Assembly (NCBI GenBank): GCA_045580085.1
Contig: JAZNND010000014.1
Span: forward strand, 9,498 to 73,497
Source: Eubacteriales bacterium
GTDB lineage: Bacteria; Bacillota; Clostridia; Oscillospirales; CAG-272
Direction of reading: 5' to 3'
DNA: 64,000 bases
Below, piece by piece: positions 35,882 through 50,679 of the stretch. Every line of letters begins with the position of its first letter. The stretch's first letter is position 1. The notes under the pieces are model-generated. The model searched no databases, was not told where the DNA came from, and was given only the letters and a program-made list of their open reading frames with translations. The translations under genes were made by a program, and so were the position numbers.

Positions 35882-38239
35882 ATGAAAAAGCAGATACATA
35901 TGATTGGAAACACCCATTTCGATCCTGTTTGGCTTTGGCGTTGGGATGAGGCGTTGGCTTCGATCCGCGCGACCTTTCACGCGGCTCTTGAGCGCATGAA
36001 GGAGGACGAGGATTTTGTGTATTCCTTTTCGGCACCTGCTGTTTTGCGCATGATCGAAGAGGTCGAGCCCGAGCTGTTTGCCGAGATCAAGGCAAGAGTC
36101 AAGGAGGGCAGATGGGAGCTCGGCGAGGGGCTTTGGCTTCAACCCGATTGTGAGAGTGGCGGCGGAGAGATCTACGTCAGAGAGGGGCTTTATGCCCAAA
36201 GGTATTTTCTTGAAAAATTCGGCATGACGAGCGAGACCGCCTTTAATATCGATTCCTTTGGCCATCCTGCAACCTTCCCTCAGATTCTTGCGGGATGCGG
36301 CATGAAAAATTATGCTTTCGTTCGACCGGGTGAGCAGGCATTTCACCTGCCGTCTCCCTATTTTATTTGGCGCGGCATTGACGGCACCGAGCTTGTTGCT
36401 GCCCGTGCCGAAAACGCGTATCCTCCGAAGCTCGAAGAGCAAACGCTTCTTCCGATGCTTCAAGATGAACAAAGACCGGAGCACAGCTTTATCGTTTACG
36501 GTGTAACCGACCACGGCGGAGCTCCCACCAAGGCGGATATGGCAACCATTCGCCGCTATCGGGATGAGGGGGTATATTATTCGCGCTGTGACAGCTTTTT
36601 TGATGCTTTGCGCAATACCGATCTTCCTACGGTGGAGGGGCATTTGCCCGTCAACTTCATCGGTCCTTCGGTCAACCATACCGAGGTTAAACAGAATAGC
36701 CGTATGGCGGAAGAAAAGCTTTTGCGAGCAGAGGCGGCGGCGACCATGGCGTGGAATCTTTGCGGTAAGAGTTACCCGAGAGAAAAGCTTTACGAGGCGT
36801 GGGCGGATGCCATGTTCAACACCTTTCACGATATCGTGGGCGGATGCTGCATTCCCTCCGCGTATCTCGACGCACGCAATCTTCATGGCAGAGCCATGCA
36901 AACAGCCGATGAAATTGCACACTATTCTTTGCAAACCATTGCTTCGAATATTAAAATGCCGGGTAAAAATCCCGATAACGCATGGAATTTGGTGCTGTTC
37001 AACACCAACGGCGTAGACGGCAGAACCGTCGTTGAGGCAGAGGCACAATGGGCATGGGAATTTGACTGGTACCGCGACGGACTCTGTTTGAAGACCGAAA
37101 ACGGCGAAGAGATTCCCGTACAAATCATTCGTGAGGAAAGCGTGATTCCGGGCTTCCGTTCCCGTATGGTTTTCGAGGTGGATATGCCGGCTTACGGCTA
37201 CCGCACCTTCGCGCTTTGCCAAAAAGGTGGCAGACCGCAGCTTTGCGAGTCCAACGACCGCAAGGAGGTTTCGATCGGTGCTTACACCGTTCGCGCCGAA
37301 AAGAACGGCGGTGTGACGCTCAAATGCGGTAAGCGCACTTATAAAGGACTTTTCCGCCCTTATCTGCGCCGCGATATTTGCGACACATGGGGGTTCAATA
37401 AGACCACGTACGAAAGAAAAAAGGAATTCTGCCGTTTGCTTTCAACCTCTGTCATCGAGGAGGGAAGCGAGAGAGTCGCGCTTAAGACGGTGTGTTTGTT
37501 CCATCATTCCAAGATTGAACAGACCTTCCTTTTGTATGCCGACGGCATGCTTGAATGCCGTTACCGCGTTCTTTTCTCGGAAGAGGGGTACGGCTTGAAA
37601 CTTGCACTCGGCGCAAAAGAAAAGACGGCAACCGTGACTGCCGCCGAGCCCTATGGGTACACGGCGCGCCCTGCCTCTTTCTATGAGAAGCCTGTGAGTG
37701 GCTTTCTCTCCTTTGGCGAGGTAGGTGTTGTTTCGGGCGATATTTTTGCTTATGATTTTGACGGTGATGCGGTTGGGCTTTCGATCTTGCGCTCTCCCAT
37801 TTACGGCGATTTACGTAATGAACCGCTTGCGCCTCGAGACGATTACATGTATATGGGGCAGGGGGAAACGCACGGCACGCTTCGCGCCTTCTTTGACGCC
37901 CCCACGCCCGCCCGCTTGGCACGGGAATCGGCAAAGCTTTTGCGCCCCGTTACGGTAATTGATGAGGCGTGCCATGACGGCGTATTGCCTGCCGAAGGCA
38001 TTTGTGTGCACAGCGACGGCGAAGATGTCATCGTTACCTCTTTGAAGCTTGCCGAGGACGGCGACCGTCCCACCTTCCGCGCTGTGGATTACAGCGGCAC
38101 GGACAGCCGTGTTTCTGTTACTGTTTTTGACCGTACGCGCCGTTATTCTTTCCGTGCGCACGAGATCAAAACGGCGGTTAATATGGAAGAAACCGATCTT
38201 TTGGAACGCCGTGGAGACGATGAATCGCTCAAGGTGTGA
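35882..38239 (+). CDS. Glycoside hydrolase family 38 (alpha-mannosidase-like)
   Basis: 'IGNTHFDPVWLWRW', 'IDSFGHP', 'YGVTDHGGAPT', 'FHDIVGG'. Confidence 0.9.
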   Translation: MKKQIHMIGNTHFDPVWLWRWDEALASIRATFHAALERMKEDEDFVYSFSAPAVLRMIEEVEPELFAEIKARVKEGRWELGEGLWLQPDCESGGGEIYVREGLYAQRYFLEKFGMTSETAFNIDSFGHPATFPQILAGCGMKNYAFVRPGEQAFHLPSPYFIWRGIDGTELVAARAENAYPPKLEEQTLLPMLQDEQRPEHSFIVYGVTDHGGAPTKADMATIRRYRDEGVYYSRCDSFFDALRNTDLPTVEGHLPVNFIGPSVNHTEVKQNSRMAEEKLLRAEAAATMAWNLCGKSYPREKLYEAWADAMFNTFHDIVGGCCIPSAYLDARNLHGRAMQTADEIAHYSLQTIASNIKMPGKNPDNAWNLVLFNTNGVDGRTVVEAEAQWAWEFDWYRDGLCLKTENGEEIPVQIIREESVIPGFRSRMVFEVDMPAYGYRTFALCQKGGRPQLCESNDRKEVSIGAYTVRAEKNGGVTLKCGKRTYKGLFRPYLRRDICDTWGFNKTTYERKKEFCRLLSTSVIEEGSERVALKTVCLFHHSKIEQTFLLYADGMLECRYRVLFSEEGYGLKLALGAKEKTATVTAAEPYGYTARPASFYEKPVSGFLSFGEVGVVSGDIFAYDFDGDAVGLSILRSPIYGDLRNEPLAPRDDYMYMGQGETHGTLRAFFDAPTPARLARESAKLLRPVTVIDEACHDGVLPAEGICVHSDGEDVIVTSLKLAEDGDRPTFRAVDYSGTDSRVSVTVFDRTRRYSFRAHEIKTAVNMEETDLLERRGDDESLKV

Positions 38240-38267
38240 ACAATTTGTTAAAACGAAAGCGTAGTTC

Positions 38268-38297
38268 TTGACAAGCGGAAAGGGATTATGCTATACT
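38268..38297 (+). promoter_or_regulatory. Sigma-A promoter of the leuA-like/ACS1 operon
   Basis: TTGACA-18 bp-(TGn)TATACT. Confidence 0.75.
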
Positions 38298-38325
38298 CAT
38301 TGCATCAAAAAAAGGAGATACCGAT

Positions 38326-38418
38326 ATGGCACGCGCAATTGCAATGGCACTCGAGCTATCCGCTGTGATCCTAACGAAGTCTGTTCGTATGGGTGACAGT
38401 GTTGTTTGTCGTGCATGA
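38326..38418 (+). CDS. Putative 30-aa attenuation leader peptide MARAIAMALELSAVILTKSVRMGDSVVCRA
   Basis: Strong RBS AAAGGAG. Leu codons are CTC, CTA, CTA. Sits between the promoter and a terminator. Not in the ORF track. Confidence 0.65.
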   Translation: MARAIAMALELSAVILTKSVRMGDSVVCRA

Positions 38419-38463
38419 ATTGGCGTATCGGCAGCGGTATTTACCAAAGCTATAAGTGAATCC

Positions 38464-38505
38464 AATTCCCACGCGCTTCGCTGCGCCGTGGGAATTTTTA
38501 TTTTT
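38464..38505 (+). terminator. Attenuator terminator in the leader
   Basis: AATTCCCACG...CGTGGGAATT followed by TTTATTTTT. GAATTGG (38417-38423) can pair instead with CCAATTC (38462-38468). Confidence 0.7.
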
Positions 38506-38535
38506 AAATCGGCATGAGCCGAAAGGAGAAAAACT

Positions 38536-39936
38536 ATGCAGAACATTCATATCACAGATACCACGCTTCCCAAGAGAGAAGAGAGTGGAAACGCCGCCTA
38601 CAGCTTCCGCGAGAAGATTGAAATCGCGAAAACGCTTGACCGTATCGGTGTTTCGGTTATTGAAATGCCCCCCTTTACGGGCAGCCGTGCCGACATCCTT
38701 CTTTTGCACACGGTGCTTCCTGTGGTAAAAAACGCTGTTCTTTCCTGCCGTCCCGCTTTGAATGAAAGCTCTGTTGCCGCTGTGTGCGATGCCATGAAGG
38801 GCTATAAGAACGCTCGCGTTCATATCGCGGTGCCGACCTCTCCCGTACAGATGGAATATCATTGCCATAAGAAGCCCAAGCCCTTGATGGAGCTTGTGGA
38901 AAAGCTGATCCAAACCGCTATGTCTGCCGGTTTTGAGGTAGAGTTTTCGGCACTCGATGCTACCCGCGCCGAAAAGGAATTTCTCTACGAAGTGCTCTCG
39001 CTTGCCGTCAAGGCGGGCGTGAAATACATCACCCTTTGCGATAGCGAGGGAATCATGCTCCCCGATGAATTTGCCGCTTTTGTTTCCGATGTGAAGAAAA
39101 ACGTGGCACTCGCTGATTGCGAGATCGGCGTGGAATGCTCCGATTTTCTGCATATGGGCTGTGCGCTCGCCGTTGCCGCCATCGGCGCGGGGGCTGTGAC
39201 GGTGAAGACCGCTGTCGGTGTGGATGGAACTACCCCCCTGCCTGCGTTTGCTTCCGTTTTGAAGATGAGAGGGGATTCTCTTGGCATCACCTCGTCGCTG
39301 AACGGTGCAAGCCTTGGCAAAACCGCCGCCAAGATCACTGCCATGACCAACGCTTCGCAAGCTGGAAAAGCGGCGATCGGCGAAAATGACGCCGCAAGCC
39401 TCGTGCTTCGCAACACCGATGATGAAAAGACGGTTGCTTCCGCGGTAGCCGCCCTCGGATACGATCTTTCCGAGGAGGATATGCACAAGGTTTACGAGAG
39501 CTTCAAACGTCTGTCCGAAAAGAAAACCATAAGCGGTGCCGAGCTTGATGTTATCGTAGCCAGCAGCGCGCTTGAGGTTGCTCCTACTTTTGTCTTGAAG
39601 AGCTATTCCGTGACGTCGAGCAACGTTATTTCCGCATCGGCTCATATCGAGCTTGAAAAAGACGGCGCGCTCCTTCGCGGTATCAGCCTTGGTGACGGCC
39701 CCGTTGACGCCGCCTTCCGTGCGATTGAACAAATCGTGGGCCACCGTTTTGAGCTTGACGATTTCGGCATTCGTGCATTGACCGAAGGGCAAGAGGCTGT
39801 CAGTGAGACGGTTGTCCGTCTGCGTGCGGGCGGCAAGATCTATTCCGGCAGAGGCGTTTCCACCGACATCATCGGTTCGAGTGTCCGCGCCTATATCAGT
39901 GCCCTCAATAAGATCTGCTTTGAAGAAATGCTTTGA
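38536..39936 (+). CDS. LeuA (2-isopropylmalate synthase)-like protein with a degenerate active site and retained C-terminal regulatory domain
   Basis: DTTLPKREE replaces DTTLRDGEQ, ECSD replaces HCHND, and GERAGN is absent. 'GDGPVDAAFRAI...GRGVSTDIIGSSVRAYISALNK' is intact. Confidence 0.85.
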   Translation: MQNIHITDTTLPKREESGNAAYSFREKIEIAKTLDRIGVSVIEMPPFTGSRADILLLHTVLPVVKNAVLSCRPALNESSVAAVCDAMKGYKNARVHIAVPTSPVQMEYHCHKKPKPLMELVEKLIQTAMSAGFEVEFSALDATRAEKEFLYEVLSLAVKAGVKYITLCDSEGIMLPDEFAAFVSDVKKNVALADCEIGVECSDFLHMGCALAVAAIGAGAVTVKTAVGVDGTTPLPAFASVLKMRGDSLGITSSLNGASLGKTAAKITAMTNASQAGKAAIGENDAASLVLRNTDDEKTVASAVAALGYDLSEEDMHKVYESFKRLSEKKTISGAELDVIVASSALEVAPTFVLKSYSVTSSNVISASAHIELEKDGALLRGISLGDGPVDAAFRAIEQIVGHRFELDDFGIRALTEGQEAVSETVVRLRAGGKIYSGRGVSTDIIGSSVRAYISALNKICFEEML

Positions 39937-39962
39937 TCGTAAAGCAGAAAAGGAGAAACAGC

Positions 39963-42440
39963 ATGAAATTATCATTTTCCACCAACCGTTGGAAGGACAC
40001 CACCATGTCGGAATTCTTCGCCATGGCGAAGGAATACCGTTTTTCCGGCGTTGAAATTCACAGCATAGAGGACTTTGGAGAAAAGGAATGCTCCGCCTTG
40101 TATCATGAGGCGATGGCACTGAACCTTTCCATTGCCTGCCTTGATATGGGTGCCGATATCGGTGCCGCCGATGATACCGCCGCGAAGGAAGAGCTTTCGG
40201 CTTGCATTGCCGCCGCGCACAGATTGCATACCCCATACCTTCGTTTGCGTGCAGGCAAGGGCGAAGGCGCAGTAGAGAACAGCGAAAAATTCCTCACATA
40301 CGCCTTGGAAGAGGCACACAAAGCCGATCTTGTGCTTCTTATTGAGACGGTTGGCGCGTATGCCGATACGGGCGTTCTTGCGAATACGCTTCGCCGTTTT
40401 GCGGATGACTCTTTGGGTGCGCTTTGGGATGTTTACTATCCCTATACCGAAGCGGGTGAGAGTGCCGAAAAAACCATCCAGAACCTCGGTGCTGCCGTGA
40501 AGCACGTTCATATGAAGGATGCGGACGGCATGGATGAATTCCGCCCCGTGGGGGAAGGAAAGATGCCCCTTGCGGATTTTATGAACGCATTACGCTCTGT
40601 CAATTACGACGGATTTATTTCCGCCGAGTGGGATCCCGATTGGATGGAGGAGCTTGCGGATGCTTCTATCATCTTCCCTCATTTTGTAACCTACATGTCG
40701 CGGTATAAGGATCCTTCTCGCAATGTTGTGTCGCTGTATGAAAACAAGGCGAAAACGGGTAAGTTCGTTTGGAAAAAAGAAACGCTGATCGAAAAGACCT
40801 TCGGTCAGGTGCTTGATACCATGGTGGAGCTTTTTCCCGATCAATACGCTATCAAGTATACGACGCTTGACTACACGCGTACCTATGCCGAGTTCCGCGA
40901 CGACGTCGATACCTTCGCGCGCGCCCTTGTTTCACTCGGTGTGCGTGCGGGTAGCCATGTTGCACTTTGGGCAACCAACCTTCCCGAGTGGTACATTGCC
41001 TTTTGGGCGACCACCAAGATCGGTGCGGTTCTGGTTACCGTCAATACCGCTTACAAGATTCATGAAGTGGAATATCTTTTGCGTCAATCGGATACCCATA
41101 CGCTGATTCTCGAACAGGGATACCGTGATTCTCATTACGATGAGATTATCGCCGAGCTTTGCCCGGAGTTGGAAAATACCAAGCCGGGCGAACCGCTTCG
41201 TTCGCGCCGCTTGCCTTTCCTTCGCAATGTCATTACCATCGGCTATAAGCAAAAAGGGTGCCTTTCCTTTGATGAGACGGTTGCCCGCGCCGACCGTGTG
41301 CCTCAAGAAGAAGTCAATCGCATGGCGGCTGCGGTGGATATCCACGACGTTTGCAACATGCAATACACCTCCGGCACCACAGGTTTCCCCAAGGGCGTTA
41401 TGCTGACGCATTACAATGTTGTCAACAACGGCAAGTGCATCGGCGACCGTATGGATCTTTCTACCGCCGATCGGCTTATGATTCAAGTGCCTATGTTCCA
41501 CTGCTTCGGCATGGTGCTTGCCATGACCGCCTCCATGACACACGGCGTTACCATCTATCCCTTACCTTACTTCTCTCCGAAGCCTGCGCTCGCTTGCATT
41601 CATAACGAGCACATCACTGCTTTCCACGGTGTTCCTACCATGTTTATTGCTCTCTTGGAACATCCCGATTTCCCCAAGACCGATTTCTCGTATATGCGTA
41701 CGGGTATCATGGCGGGCTCACCTTGCCCTATTTCGGTTATGGAGGACGTTGTCAACAAGATGCACATGTCCGAGATTACCATCGTTTACGGGCAGACCGA
41801 GGCATCTCCCGGATGCACCATGAGTTCGACCGACGATCCGCTTGAGGTGCGTGTCGGTACCGTCGGCAGAAATCTGCCCGAGATCGAGTGCCGCATTGTA
41901 GATCCCGAGACGGGTGAAGAGCTCCCCGACAATGTAACGGGTGAGTTTGTAGCGCGCGGTTATAACATCATGAAGGGATATTATAAGATGCCCGAAGCAA
42001 CCTCTAAGGCAATCGATGCCGAAGGTTGGCTCCACACGGGCGACTTGGCTTGCCGCACCCCCGAAGGCAATTACCGTATTACGGGCCGCTTGAAGGATAT
42101 GATCATCCGCGGCGGCGAGAACATTTATCCCAAGGAGATCGAGGAATTTATTTATACCCATCCGAAGGTCAGCGATGTACAAGTCATCGGTGTGCCCGAC
42201 GAGCAATACGGCGAGGAAATCATGGCTTGCATCATTTTGAAAGAGGGCGAGAGCATGACCGAACAGGAAATGAAGGACTATGTGCTTGCGCATATGGCAA
42301 AGCATAAGGTGCCGAAATATATCGATTTTGTCGATGCCTTCCCGATGAATGCCGCAGGTAAGATTCTTAAGTATAAGATGCGTGAGGATGCCGTAGAAAA
42401 GCTTGGTTTGCATAAAGCTGCCAAGATCGTTACCGCGTAA
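39963..42440 (+). CDS. Acyl-CoA synthetase (ACS1, AMP-binding) with fused N-terminal AP_endonuc_2-type TIM barrel
   Basis: N-terminal 'LLIET', 'LWDVYYP', 'HVHMKD', 'SAEW'. C-terminal 'YTSGTTGFPKG', 'YGQTE', 'WLHTGDLA', 'RLKDMIIRGGENIYP', 'AAGKI'. Confidence 0.9.
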   Translation: MKLSFSTNRWKDTTMSEFFAMAKEYRFSGVEIHSIEDFGEKECSALYHEAMALNLSIACLDMGADIGAADDTAAKEELSACIAAAHRLHTPYLRLRAGKGEGAVENSEKFLTYALEEAHKADLVLLIETVGAYADTGVLANTLRRFADDSLGALWDVYYPYTEAGESAEKTIQNLGAAVKHVHMKDADGMDEFRPVGEGKMPLADFMNALRSVNYDGFISAEWDPDWMEELADASIIFPHFVTYMSRYKDPSRNVVSLYENKAKTGKFVWKKETLIEKTFGQVLDTMVELFPDQYAIKYTTLDYTRTYAEFRDDVDTFARALVSLGVRAGSHVALWATNLPEWYIAFWATTKIGAVLVTVNTAYKIHEVEYLLRQSDTHTLILEQGYRDSHYDEIIAELCPELENTKPGEPLRSRRLPFLRNVITIGYKQKGCLSFDETVARADRVPQEEVNRMAAAVDIHDVCNMQYTSGTTGFPKGVMLTHYNVVNNGKCIGDRMDLSTADRLMIQVPMFHCFGMVLAMTASMTHGVTIYPLPYFSPKPALACIHNEHITAFHGVPTMFIALLEHPDFPKTDFSYMRTGIMAGSPCPISVMEDVVNKMHMSEITIVYGQTEASPGCTMSSTDDPLEVRVGTVGRNLPEIECRIVDPETGEELPDNVTGEFVARGYNIMKGYYKMPEATSKAIDAEGWLHTGDLACRTPEGNYRITGRLKDMIIRGGENIYPKEIEEFIYTHPKVSDVQVIGVPDEQYGEEIMACIILKEGESMTEQEMKDYVLAHMAKHKVPKYIDFVDAFPMNAAGKILKYKMREDAVEKLGLHKAAKIVTA

Positions 42441-43453: not shown

Positions 43454-43467
43454 CATGACATAATTGA

Positions 43468-43722
43468 AAAAGGCTATGACGAAGACGGACGAAGACGAGT
43501 GCTTCCAGAGAGTCGGTGGCGGTGTGAATCCGACAGTTACCCCCTTCAGTTCCCATCCCTTCTGAGCCGAAGTCCCCAACGCATCTGCAAGTAGGGCCTT
43601 CCGTATGGCTGCGTAAAAGCACGGAGCTTGTTTGAGCTCGCAGAGAGGCACCTTTGGTGCAATTTGAGTGGTACCGCGGATAATTTATTACCCGTCTCAA
43701 AGAAATTTGAGACGGTTTTTTT
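43468..43722 (+). ncRNA. T-box riboswitch, predicted Ile specifier (AUC at 43555-43557)
   Basis: Stem I K-turn GGCTATGACGAAG...CTTCTGAGCC, CAGAGA and GGTGTGA distal motifs, T-box AATTTGAGTGGTACCGCG (43661-43678), terminator CCGTCTCAAA/TTTGAGACGG followed by T7. Confidence 0.9.
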
Positions 43723-43751
43723 ATTTAAGATTAAGAAAAGGAGAACGCATC

Positions 43752-46016
43752 ATGAAAAACACGGTAAATTCTTTGGCGGAGGTTGCGGCACGTATCCGCG
43801 AGATGCGTGAGATTTTAGGCTTCAGTACCGCAGAAATGGCAGAAAAGACGGAAGTCGAAAAAGAGCTTTACGAGGAATACGAAAAGGGTGAGACCGATCT
43901 TCCTTTTTCCTTTATTCATAAATGCACGTTGGCATTCGGCGTAGACATTGCGGACCTTTTGGAAGGTAACAGCGCAAAGCTTTCTTCCTATACCGTTACG
44001 CGCAAAGGAAAAGGTCAGTTGACAGCCAAGGAAAACGGCATTGAGATTTCCAATATGGCGCCCCGTTTCCGCAACAAGCTTGCCGAACCTTATTGGGTTC
44101 GTTATGAATATTCAGAGGAACTTCAAAACCGCCCCATTCATACCACCACCCACGGCGGTCAGGAGTTTGACCTCGTGATCAGCGGTTCTTTGAAGGTGCA
44201 GATCGGTGAGCATACTGTTGTTTTGGAGGAGGGGGACAGCATTTACTATGAAAGCGGTACTCCCCACGGCATGATCGCTGTCGGCGGCAAGGACTGCGTG
44301 TTCTGCGCTGTCGTTCTTCCCGACGAGGATGTGTCCGATGAAAAAGAGATCGAAAAGTCCATCGTTACTGCAGGGGCTAAGCGTGAGCTTTTGATCAACA
44401 AGTTCATCAAGTGCAAAGAAAACGAAGAGGGTGTTTTGACCGAGATTTCTTTCACGGATGACGATAAATACAATTTCGCCTTTGATACCGTTGACGCTAT
44501 CGCGGATAAATATCCCGATAAGCTTGCGATGCTCCACGTTGCCAACGATAAGTCCGAACGCCGCTTCACATACCGTGACATCAAGCGCGAGTCCAACCGT
44601 TGCGCCAATTATTTAAAGTCTCTCGGCATCGGCAAGGGAGACCGCGTGGTCGTTGTTCTGAAAAGACATTATGAGTTCTGGTTTGCGATTCTCGCGCTTC
44701 ATAAGCTCGGTGCTGTTGCCATCCCCGCAACCAACCAGCTTAAGGCGCATGACTTTGTTTACCGCTTTAAGTCCGCAGGCGTTAAAGCCATCCTTTGCAC
44801 CGCCACCGATAAGACTGCGGAAGAGGTCGATATCGCAGCTGCCGAATGCCCGACGCTTACGGCGAAGATCCTTGTGAACGGCGACCGTGAGGGCTGGCAT
44901 AATTTCGGCGAAGAGTATAAGCTTTACAGTACGCATTTCGAACGCACCGCCGACGCGGCATGCGGAAACGATCCTATGATCATGTTCTTTACCTCGGGTA
45001 CGACCGGTTATCCGAAAATCGCCATGCACAGCTATAAGTATGCCCTCGGTCATTTTCCGACGGCACGCTATTGGCATGACATCCGCCCCGAGGATTTACA
45101 CTTGACCATTTCGGAAACCGGTTGGGGCAAAGCCCTTTGGGGCAAGCTTTACGGACAGTGGATGTGTGAAGGTGCGGTTTTTGTCTACGACTTTGACCGC
45201 TTCAATGCTTCCGATATCCTTCCGATGTTCTCGAAATATCATATCACCACCTTCTGTGCGCCTCCCACCATGTACCGTATGCTCATCAAAGACGATCTTT
45301 CGGGATACGATCTTTCGAGCATTCGCCACGCAACCACCGCGGGCGAGGCACTCAATCCCGAGGTGTTCTATCAGTTTAAAAAGGCGACCGGGTTGACTAT
45401 CATGGAGGGCTTCGGACAGACAGAAACCACCCTCACCATCGGCAATTTGGTCGGCACCACGCCCAAGCCCGGCTCTATGGGTAAAGCGATGCCGCTTTAC
45501 GATATCGATATCGTGGATACCGACGGTAATCCCGTCGGCACGGGTGAAAACGGTGAGATCGTTGTTCGCACCGACAAGCGTGTTCCCCCCGGACTCTTCC
45601 TCGGTTATTACAACGATGAGGAGAAAACGCATGACGCATGGCACGACGGTATGTATCATACGGGCGACGTTGCTTGGAGAGACGAGGACGGCTTCTTCTG
45701 GTATGTCAGCCGCATCGATGACGTCATCAAGTCCTCCGGTTACCGCATCGGTCCGTTTGAGATCGAGAACGTCATCATGGAGCTGCCTTATGTGCTTGAA
45801 TGCGGTGTTTGCGCCGCGCCCGATGAGGTCAGAGGGCAAGTAGTCAAGGCTTGCATTGTGTTGACCAAGGGCACCGAAGGCACCGATGCACTCAAAAAAG
45901 AAATTCAAGAGTATGTAAAAACGCATACGGCACCGTATAAATATCCCCGTATCGTTGAATTCCGTACCGAGCTTCCCAAAACCATCAGCGGTAAAATCCA
46001 ACGCAATAAGCTCTAA
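43752..46016 (+). CDS. XRE-HTH/cupin/medium-chain acyl-CoA synthetase fusion (ACS2)
   Basis: N-terminal 'RIREMRE...EMAEKT', cupin 'THGGQEF...GDSIYY...PHGM', then 'FTSGTTGYPK', 'GFGQTE', 'YHTGD', 'KSSGYRIGPFEIE', 'SGKIQR'. Confidence 0.92.
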   Translation: MKNTVNSLAEVAARIREMREILGFSTAEMAEKTEVEKELYEEYEKGETDLPFSFIHKCTLAFGVDIADLLEGNSAKLSSYTVTRKGKGQLTAKENGIEISNMAPRFRNKLAEPYWVRYEYSEELQNRPIHTTTHGGQEFDLVISGSLKVQIGEHTVVLEEGDSIYYESGTPHGMIAVGGKDCVFCAVVLPDEDVSDEKEIEKSIVTAGAKRELLINKFIKCKENEEGVLTEISFTDDDKYNFAFDTVDAIADKYPDKLAMLHVANDKSERRFTYRDIKRESNRCANYLKSLGIGKGDRVVVVLKRHYEFWFAILALHKLGAVAIPATNQLKAHDFVYRFKSAGVKAILCTATDKTAEEVDIAAAECPTLTAKILVNGDREGWHNFGEEYKLYSTHFERTADAACGNDPMIMFFTSGTTGYPKIAMHSYKYALGHFPTARYWHDIRPEDLHLTISETGWGKALWGKLYGQWMCEGAVFVYDFDRFNASDILPMFSKYHITTFCAPPTMYRMLIKDDLSGYDLSSIRHATTAGEALNPEVFYQFKKATGLTIMEGFGQTETTLTIGNLVGTTPKPGSMGKAMPLYDIDIVDTDGNPVGTGENGEIVVRTDKRVPPGLFLGYYNDEEKTHDAWHDGMYHTGDVAWRDEDGFFWYVSRIDDVIKSSGYRIGPFEIENVIMELPYVLECGVCAAPDEVRGQVVKACIVLTKGTEGTDALKKEIQEYVKTHTAPYKYPRIVEFRTELPKTISGKIQRNKL

Positions 46017-46081: not shown

Positions 46082-46101
46082 ATCCATATAAAAGAATAAT
46101 C

Positions 46102-46368
46102 AAAGGCATTGACGAAGAGGATGCTTGGCACAGCTTACAGAGAACCGGCGGTTGGTGTGAGTCGGGAGTGGGTGTCTTGCGGTCGGTAGCTTCCGAGCCG
46201 ATGGGAAGAAAGCGTTTCGCCGTAGAACCCATCCGTGATTGCTGCGTTAAGGCATAGGGCTTAATGGAGTCCGAGAGTGGCACCTATGGTGCAATTTGAG
46301 TGGTACCGCGGGATAAGTTTCTTATACCCGTCTCAAAGTCGTCAGTATCTTTGAGACGGGTTTTCTTG
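46102..46368 (+). ncRNA. T-box riboswitch, predicted Val specifier (GUA at 46186-46188)
   Basis: GGCATTGACGAAG...CTTCCGAGCC, CAGAGA and GGTGTGA motifs, T-box AATTTGAGTGGTACCGCG (46293-46310), terminator CCCGTCTCAAAG/CTTTGAGACGGG followed by T4. Confidence 0.9.
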
Positions 46369-46418: not shown

Positions 46419-48716
46419 ATGGAACAACAGATCACAGGTCTTGATCTCAAGATCAGGGAAATGGCATCCCGTATCCGCGCTTTGCGTGAGATCGAGGCAC
46501 TTTCCGTTGCTGACATGGCGAAAAAGACCAATGTCAGTGAGGCGGAATACTTAGCTTGTGAAAACGGCGAGAGCGATTTGAACTTTGCTTTCATCTACCG
46601 TTGCGCACTTGCGTTCAATGTGGACGTTACCGATATTATTGAAGGTACGAGCCCCAAGCTCGGTGCTTTCACTGTGACGAGAAGCGGAGAAGGGCAGCGC
46701 ATTGAGCAGGCGCATGGCATGGTTTATTATAACCTGGCACCTTCTTTCCGTAACCGTATTGCCGAGCCTCTTCTTGTACGCGCCGCATACAGCACTGATG
46801 CCGAGCATGCCGATATTGAGCTAACCACCCATGACGGGCAGGAGTGCGATATTGTTCTTAAAGGTTCTCTTAAGGTGCAGGTCGGTGAACATAAGGTCGT
46901 TCTTCACGAAGGTGACAGCATTTATTACGATTCGTCTACGCCGCACGGTATGATCGCCGCGGAGGGAGAGGACTGTCTCTTCTACGCCTTTGTGCTCAAT
47001 CCCTCGGGCGAACCTATTCCCGAGCTTGAGACTTCGACCAAGGCTTCCGTTGTGGATAAGCCTCGCAAGAAAGAGAGTAAAGAGCCTCGCGTATACGATA
47101 AATGGGTGGATGCCGAGGAGGATGAGAACGGTGTTCTCAAAAAGATCTCCTTCCGTAACGCCGAAAAATTCAATTTTGCTTTCGATATTGTTGATGTTCT
47201 TGCGAAAGAAAAGCCGGATAAGCTCGCCATGCTTCATCTTGACAGAGATAAGACCGAGCGCCGCTTTACCTTCCGTGATATCAAACGCGCTTCCAACCAG
47301 TGCGCGAACTATTTCAAGTCTCTCGGCATCAAAAAAGGCGACCGCGTCATGCTGGTGCTCAAACGTCACTATCAGTTCTGGTTTGCCATGCTTGGACTTA
47401 ACAAGCTTGGTGCCATTGTTATTCCCGCCACCAATCAGCTGAAATCTCATGACTTCAGCTACCGCTTCGGTGCCGCCGGTATCAGTGCCATTCTTTGCAC
47501 CTCGGATGCCGAAACGGTGAGCGAAGCTGAGATTGCGCTTGCCGAGTCTCCTTCCGTTGTTCACCGTATCATTGTCGGAGAAGCACGTGAGGGTTGGCGC
47601 AACTTTGACGATGAGTATACGCTTTACAGCACTCATTTCCACCGCACCGCAGAAAGTCCTTGCGGCGACGACTTGATGCTCATGTTCTTTACCTCGGGCA
47701 CCACGGGTTATCCCAAGATTGCCGCACACAATTATAAGTACGCGCTTGGGCATTTCTTAACCGCTAAGTATTGGCACGGTGTAAACCCCGAAGGGCTTCA
47801 CTTCACCATCTCGGATACCGGATGGGCAAAGGCAATGTGGGGTAAGCTTTACGGTCAGTGGATGGCAGAGGGCGCAACCTTTGTATATGACTTTGTCCGC
47901 TTCAGCGCGGCGGATATTCTTCCCTTGTTTGCTAAATATCATATCACTACTTTCTGTGCGCCTCCTACTATGTACCGTATGATGATCAAGCAAGATCTGA
48001 CGAAATACGATATGACTTCCGTAGAGCGCGCGACCACCGCGGGCGAGGCACTCAACCCCGAGGTATTCCGTCAGCTTGAAAAGCTCATGGGGCTTAAGAT
48101 CATGGAAGGCTTCGGTCAGTCCGAGTGCACGCTCATGATCGGTAATTTGCTCGGTGATTCGCATAAACTCGGCTCGATGGGTAAACCTGTTCCGCTTTAC
48201 GATGTGGATATCGTGGATCCCGACGGTAAGAGCGTCGGTGTCGGTGAAACGGGTGAGATCGTTGTACATACCGAAAACGGCGCACCTTGCGGTCTGTTCA
48301 CGGGCTACTATCTGGACGAAGAAAAAACGCGTGACGCATGGCACGACGGTCTTTATCACACGGGCGATACCGCGTGGAGAGACGAGGACGGATTCTATTG
48401 GTATGTCGGCCGTGTGGATGATGTCATCAAGTCCTCCGGTTACCGCATCGGTCCGTTTGAGATCGAGAATGTTATCATGGAGTTGCCTTATGTTCTTGAG
48501 TGCGGCATTTCCGCGGCTCCCGATCCTGTCAGAGGTCAGGTTGTCAAGGCAAGCATTGTTTTGACCAAGGGAACGGAAGGCACGGAAGAGCTGAAAAAAG
48601 AAATCCAAGAGTACGTCAAGCAAAAGACAGCACCTTACAAATATCCCAGAATCGTTGTATTCCGTGATGAATTGCCCAAGACCACCAGCGGCAAGATCAT
48701 CCGCAACAAGCTTTGA
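46419..48716 (+). CDS. XRE-HTH/cupin/medium-chain acyl-CoA synthetase fusion (ACS3), paralog of ACS2
   Basis: Same domain order and motifs as 43752-46016. Confidence 0.92.
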   Translation: MEQQITGLDLKIREMASRIRALREIEALSVADMAKKTNVSEAEYLACENGESDLNFAFIYRCALAFNVDVTDIIEGTSPKLGAFTVTRSGEGQRIEQAHGMVYYNLAPSFRNRIAEPLLVRAAYSTDAEHADIELTTHDGQECDIVLKGSLKVQVGEHKVVLHEGDSIYYDSSTPHGMIAAEGEDCLFYAFVLNPSGEPIPELETSTKASVVDKPRKKESKEPRVYDKWVDAEEDENGVLKKISFRNAEKFNFAFDIVDVLAKEKPDKLAMLHLDRDKTERRFTFRDIKRASNQCANYFKSLGIKKGDRVMLVLKRHYQFWFAMLGLNKLGAIVIPATNQLKSHDFSYRFGAAGISAILCTSDAETVSEAEIALAESPSVVHRIIVGEAREGWRNFDDEYTLYSTHFHRTAESPCGDDLMLMFFTSGTTGYPKIAAHNYKYALGHFLTAKYWHGVNPEGLHFTISDTGWAKAMWGKLYGQWMAEGATFVYDFVRFSAADILPLFAKYHITTFCAPPTMYRMMIKQDLTKYDMTSVERATTAGEALNPEVFRQLEKLMGLKIMEGFGQSECTLMIGNLLGDSHKLGSMGKPVPLYDVDIVDPDGKSVGVGETGEIVVHTENGAPCGLFTGYYLDEEKTRDAWHDGLYHTGDTAWRDEDGFYWYVGRVDDVIKSSGYRIGPFEIENVIMELPYVLECGISAAPDPVRGQVVKASIVLTKGTEGTEELKKEIQEYVKQKTAPYKYPRIVVFRDELPKTTSGKIIRNKL

Positions 48717-49397: not shown

Positions 49398-49604
49398 ATG
49401 GCAAAAGTGACATTTAATACCGACCTTTGCAAGGGCTGCGGGCTTTGCGTCGATGCTTGCCCGAAGAAACTGCTCGTGATTGCGAAGGATAAGATCAACA
49501 AGAAAGGGCATTCTCCTGCCGAAATGACCGATATGAGTAAGTGCATCGGTTGCGCCTTCTGTGCGACCATGTGCCCCGATTGCGTCATTCGTGTTGAGAA
49601 ATAA
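49398..49604 (+). CDS. 2[4Fe-4S] ferredoxin-like delta subunit of 2-oxoacid:ferredoxin oxidoreductase
   Basis: CKGCGLCVDACP and CIGCAFCATMCP. Confidence 0.93.
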   Translation: MAKVTFNTDLCKGCGLCVDACPKKLLVIAKDKINKKGHSPAEMTDMSKCIGCAFCATMCPDCVIRVEK

Positions 49605-49617
49605 GGAGGAAAAAGAA

Positions 49618-50679
49618 ATGTCTGAGAAAGTACTTATGAAGGGCAACGAGGCGATTGCGGAGGCTGCTATTTTGGCAGGTTGCCGCCATTACTTCGGCTA
49701 CCCCATCACCCCTCAAACCGAGATTGCCGCTTATATGGCAAAACGCATGCCCAAGATCGGCGGCGTATTTCTCCAAGCGGAGAGTGAGATCTCCGCGATC
49801 AATATGGTTTACGGTGTTGCAGGCGCGGGACTTCGCGTAATGACCTCCTCCTCCAGCCCCGGAATTTCGCTCAAGAGCGAAGGCCTTTCCTATCTTGCGG
49901 GCAGTGATCTTCCCGCACTGATCGTCAATGTCCAGAGAGGCGGCCCCGGTCTCGGCGGTATTCAGCCCTCCCAGTCCGACTATTTCCAAGCCACTCGCGG
50001 CGGCGGCCACGGTGACTATCATATGCTGGTATATGCGCCTGCTTCCGTTCAGGAAATGGCTGATTTGACCGTTCTTGGTTTTGAGAAGGCAGACGAATAC
50101 CGTATGACTGCCATGATCCTTGCTGACGGTACGATGGGCCAAATGATGGAGCCTGTTGCGCTTCCCAAGGGCGAGAGCCGTACCTTCCCGAAGCCTTGGG
50201 CTTTGACGGGTACCGGTTGCGAGCGTAAGCACAATATCGTCAACTCCCTTTTCCTCAAGCCCGAAACGCTTGAGAAGGAGAATTTCGCGCGTTATGAGCG
50301 TTACCGTAAGATCGAAGAGACAGAAGCTATGTATGAGTCCTTCATGATGGAAGATGCAGAATACTGCGTTGTTGCCTTCGGTATCGCCGCGCGCGTATCC
50401 AAAAACGCCATCGTAGAAGCACGCAAAGCGGGCGTTAAGGTCGGTATGATCCGTCCTATCACCGTTTGGCCCTTCCCGAAGGCACCCCTTGCCGAGGCTG
50501 CAAAGCAAGTCAAGGCATTCCTTTCCGTAGAGCTTTCCATGGGGCAGATGATCGAAGACATCGAGCTGGCTACCCGTTGCGCACGTCCTGTGCTTCTTTG
50601 CAACCGTGCGGGCGGCATGATCCCCTCGCCCGAGGAAGTTTACGCGAAAATCATGGATATGGCAAAGGAGGTAAAATAA
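49618..50679 (+). CDS. vorB: 2-oxoisovalerate (3-methyl-2-oxobutanoate):ferredoxin oxidoreductase alpha-type subunit
   Basis: 'GNEAIAEAAI', 'YPITPQTE', 'SSSSPGISLK', 'RGGPGLGGIQPSQSDYFQ', 'VELSMGQM'. ATG at 49618 follows GGAGG. Confidence 0.85.
   Translation: MSEKVLMKGNEAIAEAAILAGCRHYFGYPITPQTEIAAYMAKRMPKIGGVFLQAESEISAINMVYGVAGAGLRVMTSSSSPGISLKSEGLSYLAGSDLPALIVNVQRGGPGLGGIQPSQSDYFQATRGGGHGDYHMLVYAPASVQEMADLTVLGFEKADEYRMTAMILADGTMGQMMEPVALPKGESRTFPKPWALTGTGCERKHNIVNSLFLKPETLEKENFARYERYRKIEETEAMYESFMMEDAEYCVVAFGIAARVSKNAIVEARKAGVKVGMIRPITVWPFPKAPLAEAAKQVKAFLSVELSMGQMIEDIELATRCARPVLLCNRAGGMIPSPEEVYAKIMDMAKEVK

Follow-up and report, generated by a model that had tools for sequence, protein, structure and literature searches.

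Leader-peptide attenuation of amino-acid genes is a textbook mechanism in enteric bacteria; to our knowledge it is sparsely documented in Firmicutes, where T-boxes dominate. The described systems cited in this study are taken from partial texts of their sources. The Salmonella leu attenuator normally uses three CUA codons, and a change of CUA to CUG lowers its sensitivity (PMC1183508); ilvD of the Staphylococcus aureus ilv-leu genes has a Leu-rich attenuator peptide shown by experiment to respond to leucine and to peptide and terminator mutations (PMC5794164); and the hisS paralogues of bacilli provide a documented switch within Firmicutes from a T-box to a 'regular' histidine leader peptide (PMC2965389). 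Here we analyse a leader region of a Eubacteriales bacterium, found on contig JAZNND010000014.1 in a stretch of 64,000 nt (the window, within which all coordinates are positions; its genome is G000 below). It lies between a GH38 mannosidase gene (35882-38239) and a LeuA-like gene (38536-39936). An original prediction, made from the letters of the window alone, had called it a ribosome-mediated leader-peptide attenuator sensing leucine in a T-box-using Firmicute; its statement that enteric leu attenuators use CUA codons agrees with the Salmonella report (partial text of PMC1183508). Our follow-up supports the proposal: the region is most likely a ribosome-mediated transcription attenuator of the classical type, with charged tRNA-Leu(UAG) as its signal. 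The support comes from 17 distinct leaders with a Shine-Dalgarno (SD) sequence and ATG, CTA-rich Leu clusters, a covarying hairpin (P1) and a terminator, and from Leu (CUC) T-boxes at the same place in other loci. The parts of the window leader are as follows.

38268-38297, plus strand: sigma-70-type promoter, TTGACA (38268-38273), 18 nt, TATACT (38292-38297), with a TG extension before the -10; 11 of 12 consensus matches
38312-38317, plus strand: SD sequence of the leader ORF, AAGGAG; 8 nt from the end of GGAG to the ATG at 38326
38326-38418, plus strand: leader ORF (upstream ORF, uORF), 30 sense codons and TGA at 38416-38418; peptide MARAIAMALELSAVILTKSVRMGDSVVCRA
38350-38352, 38356-38358 and 38371-38373, plus strand: Leu codons of the uORF in the window sequence, CTC, CTA (CTA-11) and CTA (CTA-16)
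38360-38371, plus strand: segment 1, 5' strand of P1; core CGCTGT at 38361-38366, directly 3' of CTA-11 and running into CTA-16
38391-38401, plus strand: segment 2a, 3' strand of P1; core ACAGTG at 38396-38401
38402-38413, plus strand: T-rich tract, TTGTTT (38402-38407) and GTCGTG, directly 3' of P1; fits the NusG motif TTNTTT
38410-38423, plus strand: segment 2b, proposed 5' antiterminator strand; CGTG at 38410-38413 and GAATTGG at 38417-38423, overlapping the stop codon at 38416-38418
38462-38473, plus strand: segment 3, proposed antiterminator partner; CCAATTC at 38462-38468 and CACG at 38470-38473, overlapping the 5' arm of the terminator
38464-38505, plus strand: intrinsic terminator; stem at 38464-38496 with one bulged C, loop TTCGCT, then TTTTTATTTTT; core about -18 kcal/mol

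The promoter, strong ribosome-binding site, 30-codon uORF, terminator and leuA-like gene thus occur in the predicted order and places, as do the Leu codons CTC, CTA and CTA, and the prediction's description is right in every detail checked. Four of the features that define leader-peptide attenuators are present: a short ORF with SD and start near the transcription start, cognate control codons over-represented in that ORF, a 1:2 hairpin at or next to these codons (P1), and an intrinsic terminator that separates the leader ORF from the first structural gene. The promoter is the single promoter-like site in a scan of 37500-39500, a count that is not by itself significant against shuffles (1.4 ± 1.2 expected). 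The terminator was missed by a simple scanner because its stem has a bulge. The leader as a whole folds more stably than its shuffles (z -4.85, 0/200) and is single-copy in its own genome by nhmmer.

Of 150 genomes sampled from the same family, 57 encode a LeuA-like orthologue, at no more than 48% identity, and a metagenome scan with the LeuA-like protein returned 3 loci at 38-43% identity, none close. Two metagenome-assembled genomes (MAGs) with closer proteins (67-69% identity; loci L032 and L033), together with the genome G061 (48%), lack a T-box at this place and have a uORF and terminator instead. A protein scan with the G061 query added 80 loci, many with the same kind of leader. After an automatic screen, uORFs were chosen by eye, yielding 18 curated leaders; L096 is nearly identical to L089, leaving 17 distinct leaders, the window's and 16 from other Clostridia MAGs of gut and rumen. 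Conservation of the uORF upstream of orthologues, which the original prediction would lead one to expect, is seen in 16 further distinct homologous leaders, with Leu-codon clusters that are dominated by CTA over the set. All 18 have an SD-like word before the ATG, and all 18 have a hairpin with T-run (-11.1 to -22.7 kcal/mol) 25-94 nt 5' of the gene. A TTGACA-N15-19-TATAAT-like promoter lies 55-70 nt 5' of the uORF ATG in 15 by regular expression, and the remaining three have near-matches, read by eye. The uORFs run to 22-45 codons; their Leu codons group between codons 7 and 25, and LL or LLL is frequent.

BLAST with the leader DNA over 401 same-family genomes gave only matches of 20-34 nt outside the own genome, and an exact-pattern scan of genome contigs with a 23-nt motif recovered the L032 and L033 records only, plus one match in an Acidiferrales MAG. 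A covariance model (R1; 92 positions, 6 pairs) scanned over 151 family genomes matched credibly only G000 and G061. A third, weak match (E 0.0035) was rejected, as it lies inside a long coding-like stretch without a terminator. R1 also found no match in five genomes where the LeuA-like gene follows an amidohydrolase gene, which says little. Profiles built from the leaders matched 0 of 102 non-leader loci in nhmmer at E ≤ 1. Rfam at E ≤ 10 found nothing in 36000-41000 of the window but two chance matches inside a gene, and at E ≤ 0.1 found no match in the 16 homologous leader loci. Full-text literature searches, subscription journals not covered, turned up no paper on a Leu leader peptide in Clostridia. 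Judged by these searches and by its parts, the leader set is a new family of a known attenuator class.

Codon usage points to translation of the uORF. The original prediction had remarked that CTA looks rare, and across 1103 long ORFs of the genome it is indeed the rarest sense codon, with 834 of about 51,400 Leu codons (1.6%); the genome has one tRNA-Leu(UAG) gene. Over the 17 leaders, Leu makes up 14.1% of uORF codons vs 8.0% in the downstream genes, and CTA accounts for 31 of 74 Leu codons in the uORFs vs 9 of 632 in the genes, an enrichment of about 30-fold; counted by frame, CTA occurs 32, 13 and 0 times. The uORF of L110 has five CTC and no CTA, so that Leu identity is kept there through synonymous change. 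The start codon shares its frame with a conserved RNA anchor in 17/17 leaders, while the codon number of the anchor varies from 12 to 22. A metagenome contig of a close relative (151 nt, over 38293-38425; a single contig, depth 3) carries a +1/-1 indel pair at 38336/38346 that brings the frame back before the Leu codons, and it also has a synonymous ATC to ATT change at 38370. It comes from a DNA metagenome run that contains a fifth of the sampled words and gave no contig across the terminator; among the sequencing runs listed, none from RNA covers this stretch. The suggestion that the leader might also sense Ile or Val did not hold up: Ile is in slight excess in the uORFs (1.27-fold) and Val is not enriched, neither shows a rare-codon skew, and two T-boxes further downstream in the cluster sense Ile and Val. 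The uORFs of L089 and L096 have 9 Ile and only 2 Leu codons (MYSFGFAAVISVIIAIIILDIIGLNKNSAFCRI), and these two leaders may respond to Ile as well, or instead.

The second line of evidence is P1. When the 17 leaders are aligned with MAFFT, without any fit to structure (alignment A2), the blocks that line up are CTA-NN-CGCTRT, AYAGYG-yTNTTT-GYCGTG (the motif) and, third, the terminator. The six core pairs of P1 (CGCTRT with AYAGYG) form in 13-16 of the 17 sequences, and one of them covaries, being G-C in 7 and A-U in 6. In a 10-pair version of P1, 71.8% of cells are paired vs 63.5 ± 2.0 in shuffles; none of 500 shuffles reaches this value, nor do any of 500 reach the observed covariation score, and slid controls give 28-55% pairing. 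RNAalifold on a second alignment returns the same six pairs. CTA or CTC stands two codons before the anchor in 9/17 leaders and within three codons in 13/17; stalling at such a codon would place the ribosome over the P1 5' strand. The motif is held at the nucleotide level whatever its frame, and L033 reads it in another frame.

Directly after P1, the TTGTTT/GTCGTG tract is a candidate pause site. In Bacillus subtilis the NusG pause motif TTNTTT lies at -11 to -6, with the pause hairpin 11-12 nt upstream of the pause (partial text of PMC11602163). The same geometry predicts a pause near 38412, 11 nt past P1. At this fixed place the exact TTNTTT occurs in 3/17 leaders and nTNTTT in 8/17, against per-position backgrounds in the leaders of 0.009 and 0.024.

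The antiterminator is the weakest part of the case. In the window, GAATTGG is complementary to CCAATTC as the original prediction had noted, and in constrained folds the antiterminator is the minimum-free-energy (MFE) structure with a ribosome at CTA-11 and is lost with a ribosome at the stop codon. In the closest relative, L033, the equivalent is GAGUAGG/CCUAUUC, in which a U-A pair is turned into A-U and the pairing kept; L032 has a different but analogous antiterminator pairing. When the stalled state is modelled, RNA further upstream pairs with at least 6 nt of the terminator 5' arm in 16 of 18 leaders; by our own reading, this upstream partner overlaps the GYCGTG core in 14 of the 17 distinct leaders. 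With no ribosome, GUGC and AAUUG of the window are also tied up in its long 1:2 hairpin. These folds agree with the predicted antiterminator for the window, but the tests across the family do not establish it, the results of alternative folding there being weak or negative. Terminator and antiterminator pairs were not counted on A2, since that alignment puts the terminators out of register. In the whole-leader MFE fold, the SD region GGAGAUACCG (38314-38323) pairs with CGGUAUUUACC (38435-38445), 3' of the uORF, and L032 has an analogous SD/anti-SD pairing; on this model, such pairing might turn off the uORF on completed leader transcripts.

Several observations weigh against an attenuator of this kind, or against parts of it. 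(i) Within the window alone, two in-frame CTA per 30 triplets are unremarkable for non-coding DNA, so the weight of the case comes from conservation in relatives; moreover, the window uORF holds just three Leu codons, dispersed. (ii) All 17 leaders are related and belong to one clade, which means that counts over them overstate the number of independent events, and their uORFs were selected by eye after the automatic screen. (iii) In 10/18 leaders, folds of truncated RNA give the terminator 5' arm an upstream partner even when no ribosome is present. (iv) By RNAduplex, the 3' end of the uORF pairs with the terminator 5' arm only as well as shuffles do (mean z +0.26; 0/17 below -1.64); the best ungapped helix to the GTCGTG core is modestly above shuffles (93 vs 82.6 ± 4.6; 10/500 reach it), pairs within a leader do not surpass cross pairs (5.47 vs 5.64), and the motif has no likeness to the terminator 3' arm (sum 103 vs 105 ± 3). 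(v) With ribosomes represented as masks, the equilibrium probability of the terminator is at least 0.89 in 15/17 leaders whatever the ribosome position, and because it does not change, any antitermination must be kinetic; a kinetic antiterminator across the family is plausible on these models. (vi) In L033, L119 and L126 the stop codon comes 5' of the conserved motif, and in L098 it falls within the motif. In L033 (uORF 1186-1254), a 1-nt length difference after the second CTA brings the end 24 nt earlier, to give 22 codons, with the nucleotides conserved. The position of the stop codon is thus not a fixed part of the mechanism, and masking of the antiterminator by a ribosome at the stop cannot be general. 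The predicted freeing of the terminator by such a ribosome accordingly stands for the constrained folds of the window, but fails in the three leaders whose stop is too far upstream. (vii) A stalled ribosome leaves codons 2-5 free, and the MFE fold pairs these with part of the antiterminator strand.

From the computed parts, their conservation in relatives, the P1 covariation, the reading frame and the codon bias, we infer uORF translation, a pause, an antiterminator and a response to leucine, which would work together as follows. Transcription would start at about 38304. RNA polymerase would make the uORF and P1 (38360-38401) and then probably pause about 11 nt on, at TTGTTT/GTCGTG, until a translating ribosome melts P1 and so releases it. 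With ample Leu, the ribosome would reach the stop codon at 38416-38418 and mask CGTG..GAATTGG, allowing the terminator at 38464-38505 to form and end transcription before the operon of the LeuA-like protein and acyl-CoA ligase. With Leu-tRNA(UAG) scarce, the ribosome would stall with CTA-11 or CTA-16 in its A site, on the 5' strand of P1; the free downstream segment could then pair with CCAATTC..CACG before the terminator 3' arm is made, giving read-through.

An improbable alternative is a structured cis-regulatory RNA, either a riboswitch or a protein-binding leader, with an ORF that is untranslated or whose translation is irrelevant. It would fit the covariation of P1, the good fold of the whole leader (the z of -4.85 given above), and the 3' half of the uORF, where the nucleotides are conserved and the peptide is not, with the motif out of frame in L033 and past the stop in L119 and L126. 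Yet it gives no reason for the coding features: SD and ATG are retained in 18/18 leaders, the frame from ATG to anchor is kept in 17/17 despite length changes 5' of the anchor, Leu identity survives synonymous codon changes, and the rarest codon is enriched about 30-fold and lies mostly in frame; nor does it match any Rfam family. We give still less credence, very little in all, to a small gene for a hydrophobic membrane peptide with its own terminator, standing by chance upstream of the operon and without regulatory role. The products do look the part, with 21-45 residues rich in L, I, V, A and F that resemble a single transmembrane helix and polar tail (e.g. MFSITIFDIIVLLLAVTLLIQKNNRYSAFSRT), but the leader peptides of enteric branched-chain amino-acid operons are equally hydrophobic. 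Here the peptide is poorly conserved while the nucleotide motif and hairpin are conserved, 4 leaders have the C-terminal part in another frame or truncated, the rarest codon is not avoided but enriched, no separate promoter is seen in the 25-94 nt between terminator and next gene, and the element occupies the exact place of the Leu T-box in orthologous loci. Finally, an ORF without function that lies by chance between a promoter and a terminator that leaks, or a junction wrongly assembled in a MAG, has a next to negligible probability and is in our view refuted by conservation, for although two in-frame CTA in 30 non-coding triplets are not rare and the promoter count in the region is not above shuffles, the same architecture recurs in 16 other genomes from several assemblies and the leader profiles match none of the 102 non-leader loci.

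Returning to the leucine attenuator, its position is one that a T-box holds in most orthologues. A T-box lies upstream in 17 of 20 other loci scanned, above the Rfam cut-off. The specifier codon is CUC in the four T-box alignments shown, and a regular-expression parse of 50 T-box loci reads CTC at the specifier place in 42, another codon in 7 and leaves 1 unparsed; because the specifier reads CUC, these orthologues appear to be under leucine control. The window leader itself gave no match to the T-box family (RF00230) at 38300-38535. The genome otherwise merits its description as that of a T-box-using Firmicute, with 8 T-box matches, 3 of them above the Rfam cut-off.

In a protein tree of 120 orthologues (FastTree, SH-like supports), a single clade of 48 (support 98) takes in 17 of the 18 leader-type proteins, the exception being L099 on a long branch, and none of the 50 T-box loci belongs to it. 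The other 31 members of the clade are Lentisphaerota loci with a different leader and loci with the gene after an amidohydrolase gene. G027, of the same genus as the window genome, has a T-box and a protein only 46% identical; the window cassette looks, from these sequences, like a member of a leader-plus-gene lineage that is patchy in the family. Inside the leader-type clade, a group from Lentisphaerota and rumen MAGs (L034-L042, L116 and L137-L140) has another conserved upstream element, with a promoter-like CTTGTAAA..TTATATTATA and a hairpin GGTGTGGACGG..CCGTCCGG before AAAGTCAGAAAGGTT; these upstream regions have neither a T-box nor a Leu uORF.

Related Clostridia thus have one of two leucine switches, T-box or leader peptide, in front of orthologous genes, and they offer a clean natural case for the replacement of one sensing system by another. 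The leaders are also an independent instance of the rare CUA as control codon, as in Salmonella. With at least 17 distinct members and no Rfam match, the family is a candidate addition to RNA and small-ORF annotation, which would keep such uORFs from being missed or called hypothetical proteins.

The genes under the presumed control of the leader, and those that follow, are listed next.

38536-39936, plus strand: LeuA-like gene, first regulated gene; HMGL-like and LeuA_dimer domains, with its own SD
39933-42440, plus strand: second regulated gene; xylose-isomerase-like TIM barrel fused to acyl-CoA ligase, its start overlapping the LeuA-like stop
43467-43702: T-box, Ile; 76 bits (Rfam cut-off 93), specifier place AUC by alignment to the consensus
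43668-46016: MbcS-like acyl-CoA synthetase 1, after the AUC T-box; N-terminal extension with helix-turn-helix (HTH) and cupin domains (Pfam)
46100-46338: T-box, Val; 84.7 bits (Rfam cut-off 93), specifier place GUA by alignment to the consensus
46419-48716: MbcS-like acyl-CoA synthetase 2, after the GUA T-box; N-terminal extension (Pfam was run on the first synthetase only)
49561-50679: VorB-type 2-oxoacid:ferredoxin oxidoreductase subunit, after the second MbcS-like synthetase

The LeuA-like protein is the only LeuA_dimer match in the genome. It has the HMGL-like barrel and LeuA_dimer domain of LeuA, and its best NCBIfam equivalog score is 281.6 bits vs a cut-off of 532. R-D-G-E-Q after DTTL, and H-x-H, are the substrate and metal motifs of LeuA. 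The window protein has DTTLPKREES and ECSDF where the synthase structure 3rmj has DTTLRDGEQS and HCHND. In the two stretches aligned for 121 orthologues, RDGEQ is absent among the 40 commonest variants of each, and the H-x-H place is ECSD or ECSN in most. The label leuA-like is therefore right as to domains, but with the synthase motifs missing, and with scores that do not reach the NCBIfam LeuA cut-offs, the gene is no canonical leuA. Its product may, on these motifs, be a Leu-binding partner instead of a synthase. The TIM-barrel/ligase gene follows it in 18/19 leader, 47/50 T-box and 51/52 other loci, and full-text literature searches, subscription journals not covered, turned up no description of the pair. 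At the upstream border, an imperfect palindrome TGAACAATTTGTTAA at 38237-38251 overlaps the mannosidase stop codon, 17 nt 5' of the -35 hexamer; it is kept as TGAACAAnnTGTTAA at the same place in L032 and L033 and not in the other 15 leaders, and may be a candidate transcription-factor operator.

Downstream of the pair, the order is amidohydrolase, T-box (AUC), HTH-cupin-MbcS-like ligase, T-box (GUA), second MbcS-like ligase and VorB-type subunit. As Ile and Val are sensed by these T-boxes, Leu is left to the window leader, and the cluster looks like a set of three switches, each specific to one of Leu, Ile and Val, that serve to make these amino acids from branched-chain fatty acids. IlvD (PF00920) has no match in the genome, which is 96.5% complete, and there is a single Iso_dh match and a single aconitase, of 645 aa; the classical Leu/Ile/Val pathway may be missing. 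Marking the LeuA-like/ligase pair as leucine-controlled, as the leader suggests, would give a lead to its function in gut and rumen bacteria seemingly without that pathway.

Perhaps all this belongs together, a speculation that we put forward tentatively and would not bet on. The leader would be the arm for Leu in a regulon with three arms that makes branched-chain amino acids out of branched-chain fatty acids, with the Ile and Val arms working through the AUC and GUA T-boxes and each arm driving its own acyl-CoA ligase upstream of a VorB-type oxidoreductase. It would have displaced an ancestral Leu (CUC) T-box in one clade; the LeuA-like protein, with its rebuilt active site, would possibly be a Leu sensor; and the hairpin with TTNTTT would be a ribosome-released, NusG-dependent pause module. 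If so, this would be a Clostridia leader-peptide attenuator whose pause element is readable from sequence.

Among known systems, the leu leader of Salmonella and E. coli shares the plan of a short ORF with rare CUA control codons followed by an intrinsic terminator, with read-through when a ribosome stalls for Leu. The window family differs in several ways: (i) its hosts are Clostridia and not enterics; (ii) it has no sequence or structure match in Rfam and so falls outside the covariance model of Leu_leader, the Rfam family of the enteric leu operon leader; (iii) it has 2-7 Leu codons, often split around the hairpin strand, whereas the enteric leader has four in a row; (iv) it would regulate a LeuA-like/acyl-CoA-ligase pair and not leuABCD; and (v) a Firmicute-type TTNTTT pause motif follows its hairpin. 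The S. aureus ilvD leader, compared by description, is likewise a Leu-rich Firmicute leader peptide with a terminator where B. subtilis has a Leu T-box, but it belongs to Bacilli and to another operon, and its 26-aa peptide has three Ile then two Leu codons (partial text of PMC5794164). The hisS leaders of bacilli differ from the window family in amino acid, genes and class (Bacilli), and in the partial text of that report 'leuA' and 'leucine' occur nowhere (PMC2965389). The Leu T-box (RF00230) shares with the window leader its position, the signal of uncharged tRNA-Leu, the terminator/antiterminator output and the orthologous genes. Unlike the leader, it binds the tRNA directly and needs no translation, and it reads CUC (tRNA-Leu GAG) where the window leader would read CUA (tRNA-Leu UAG).

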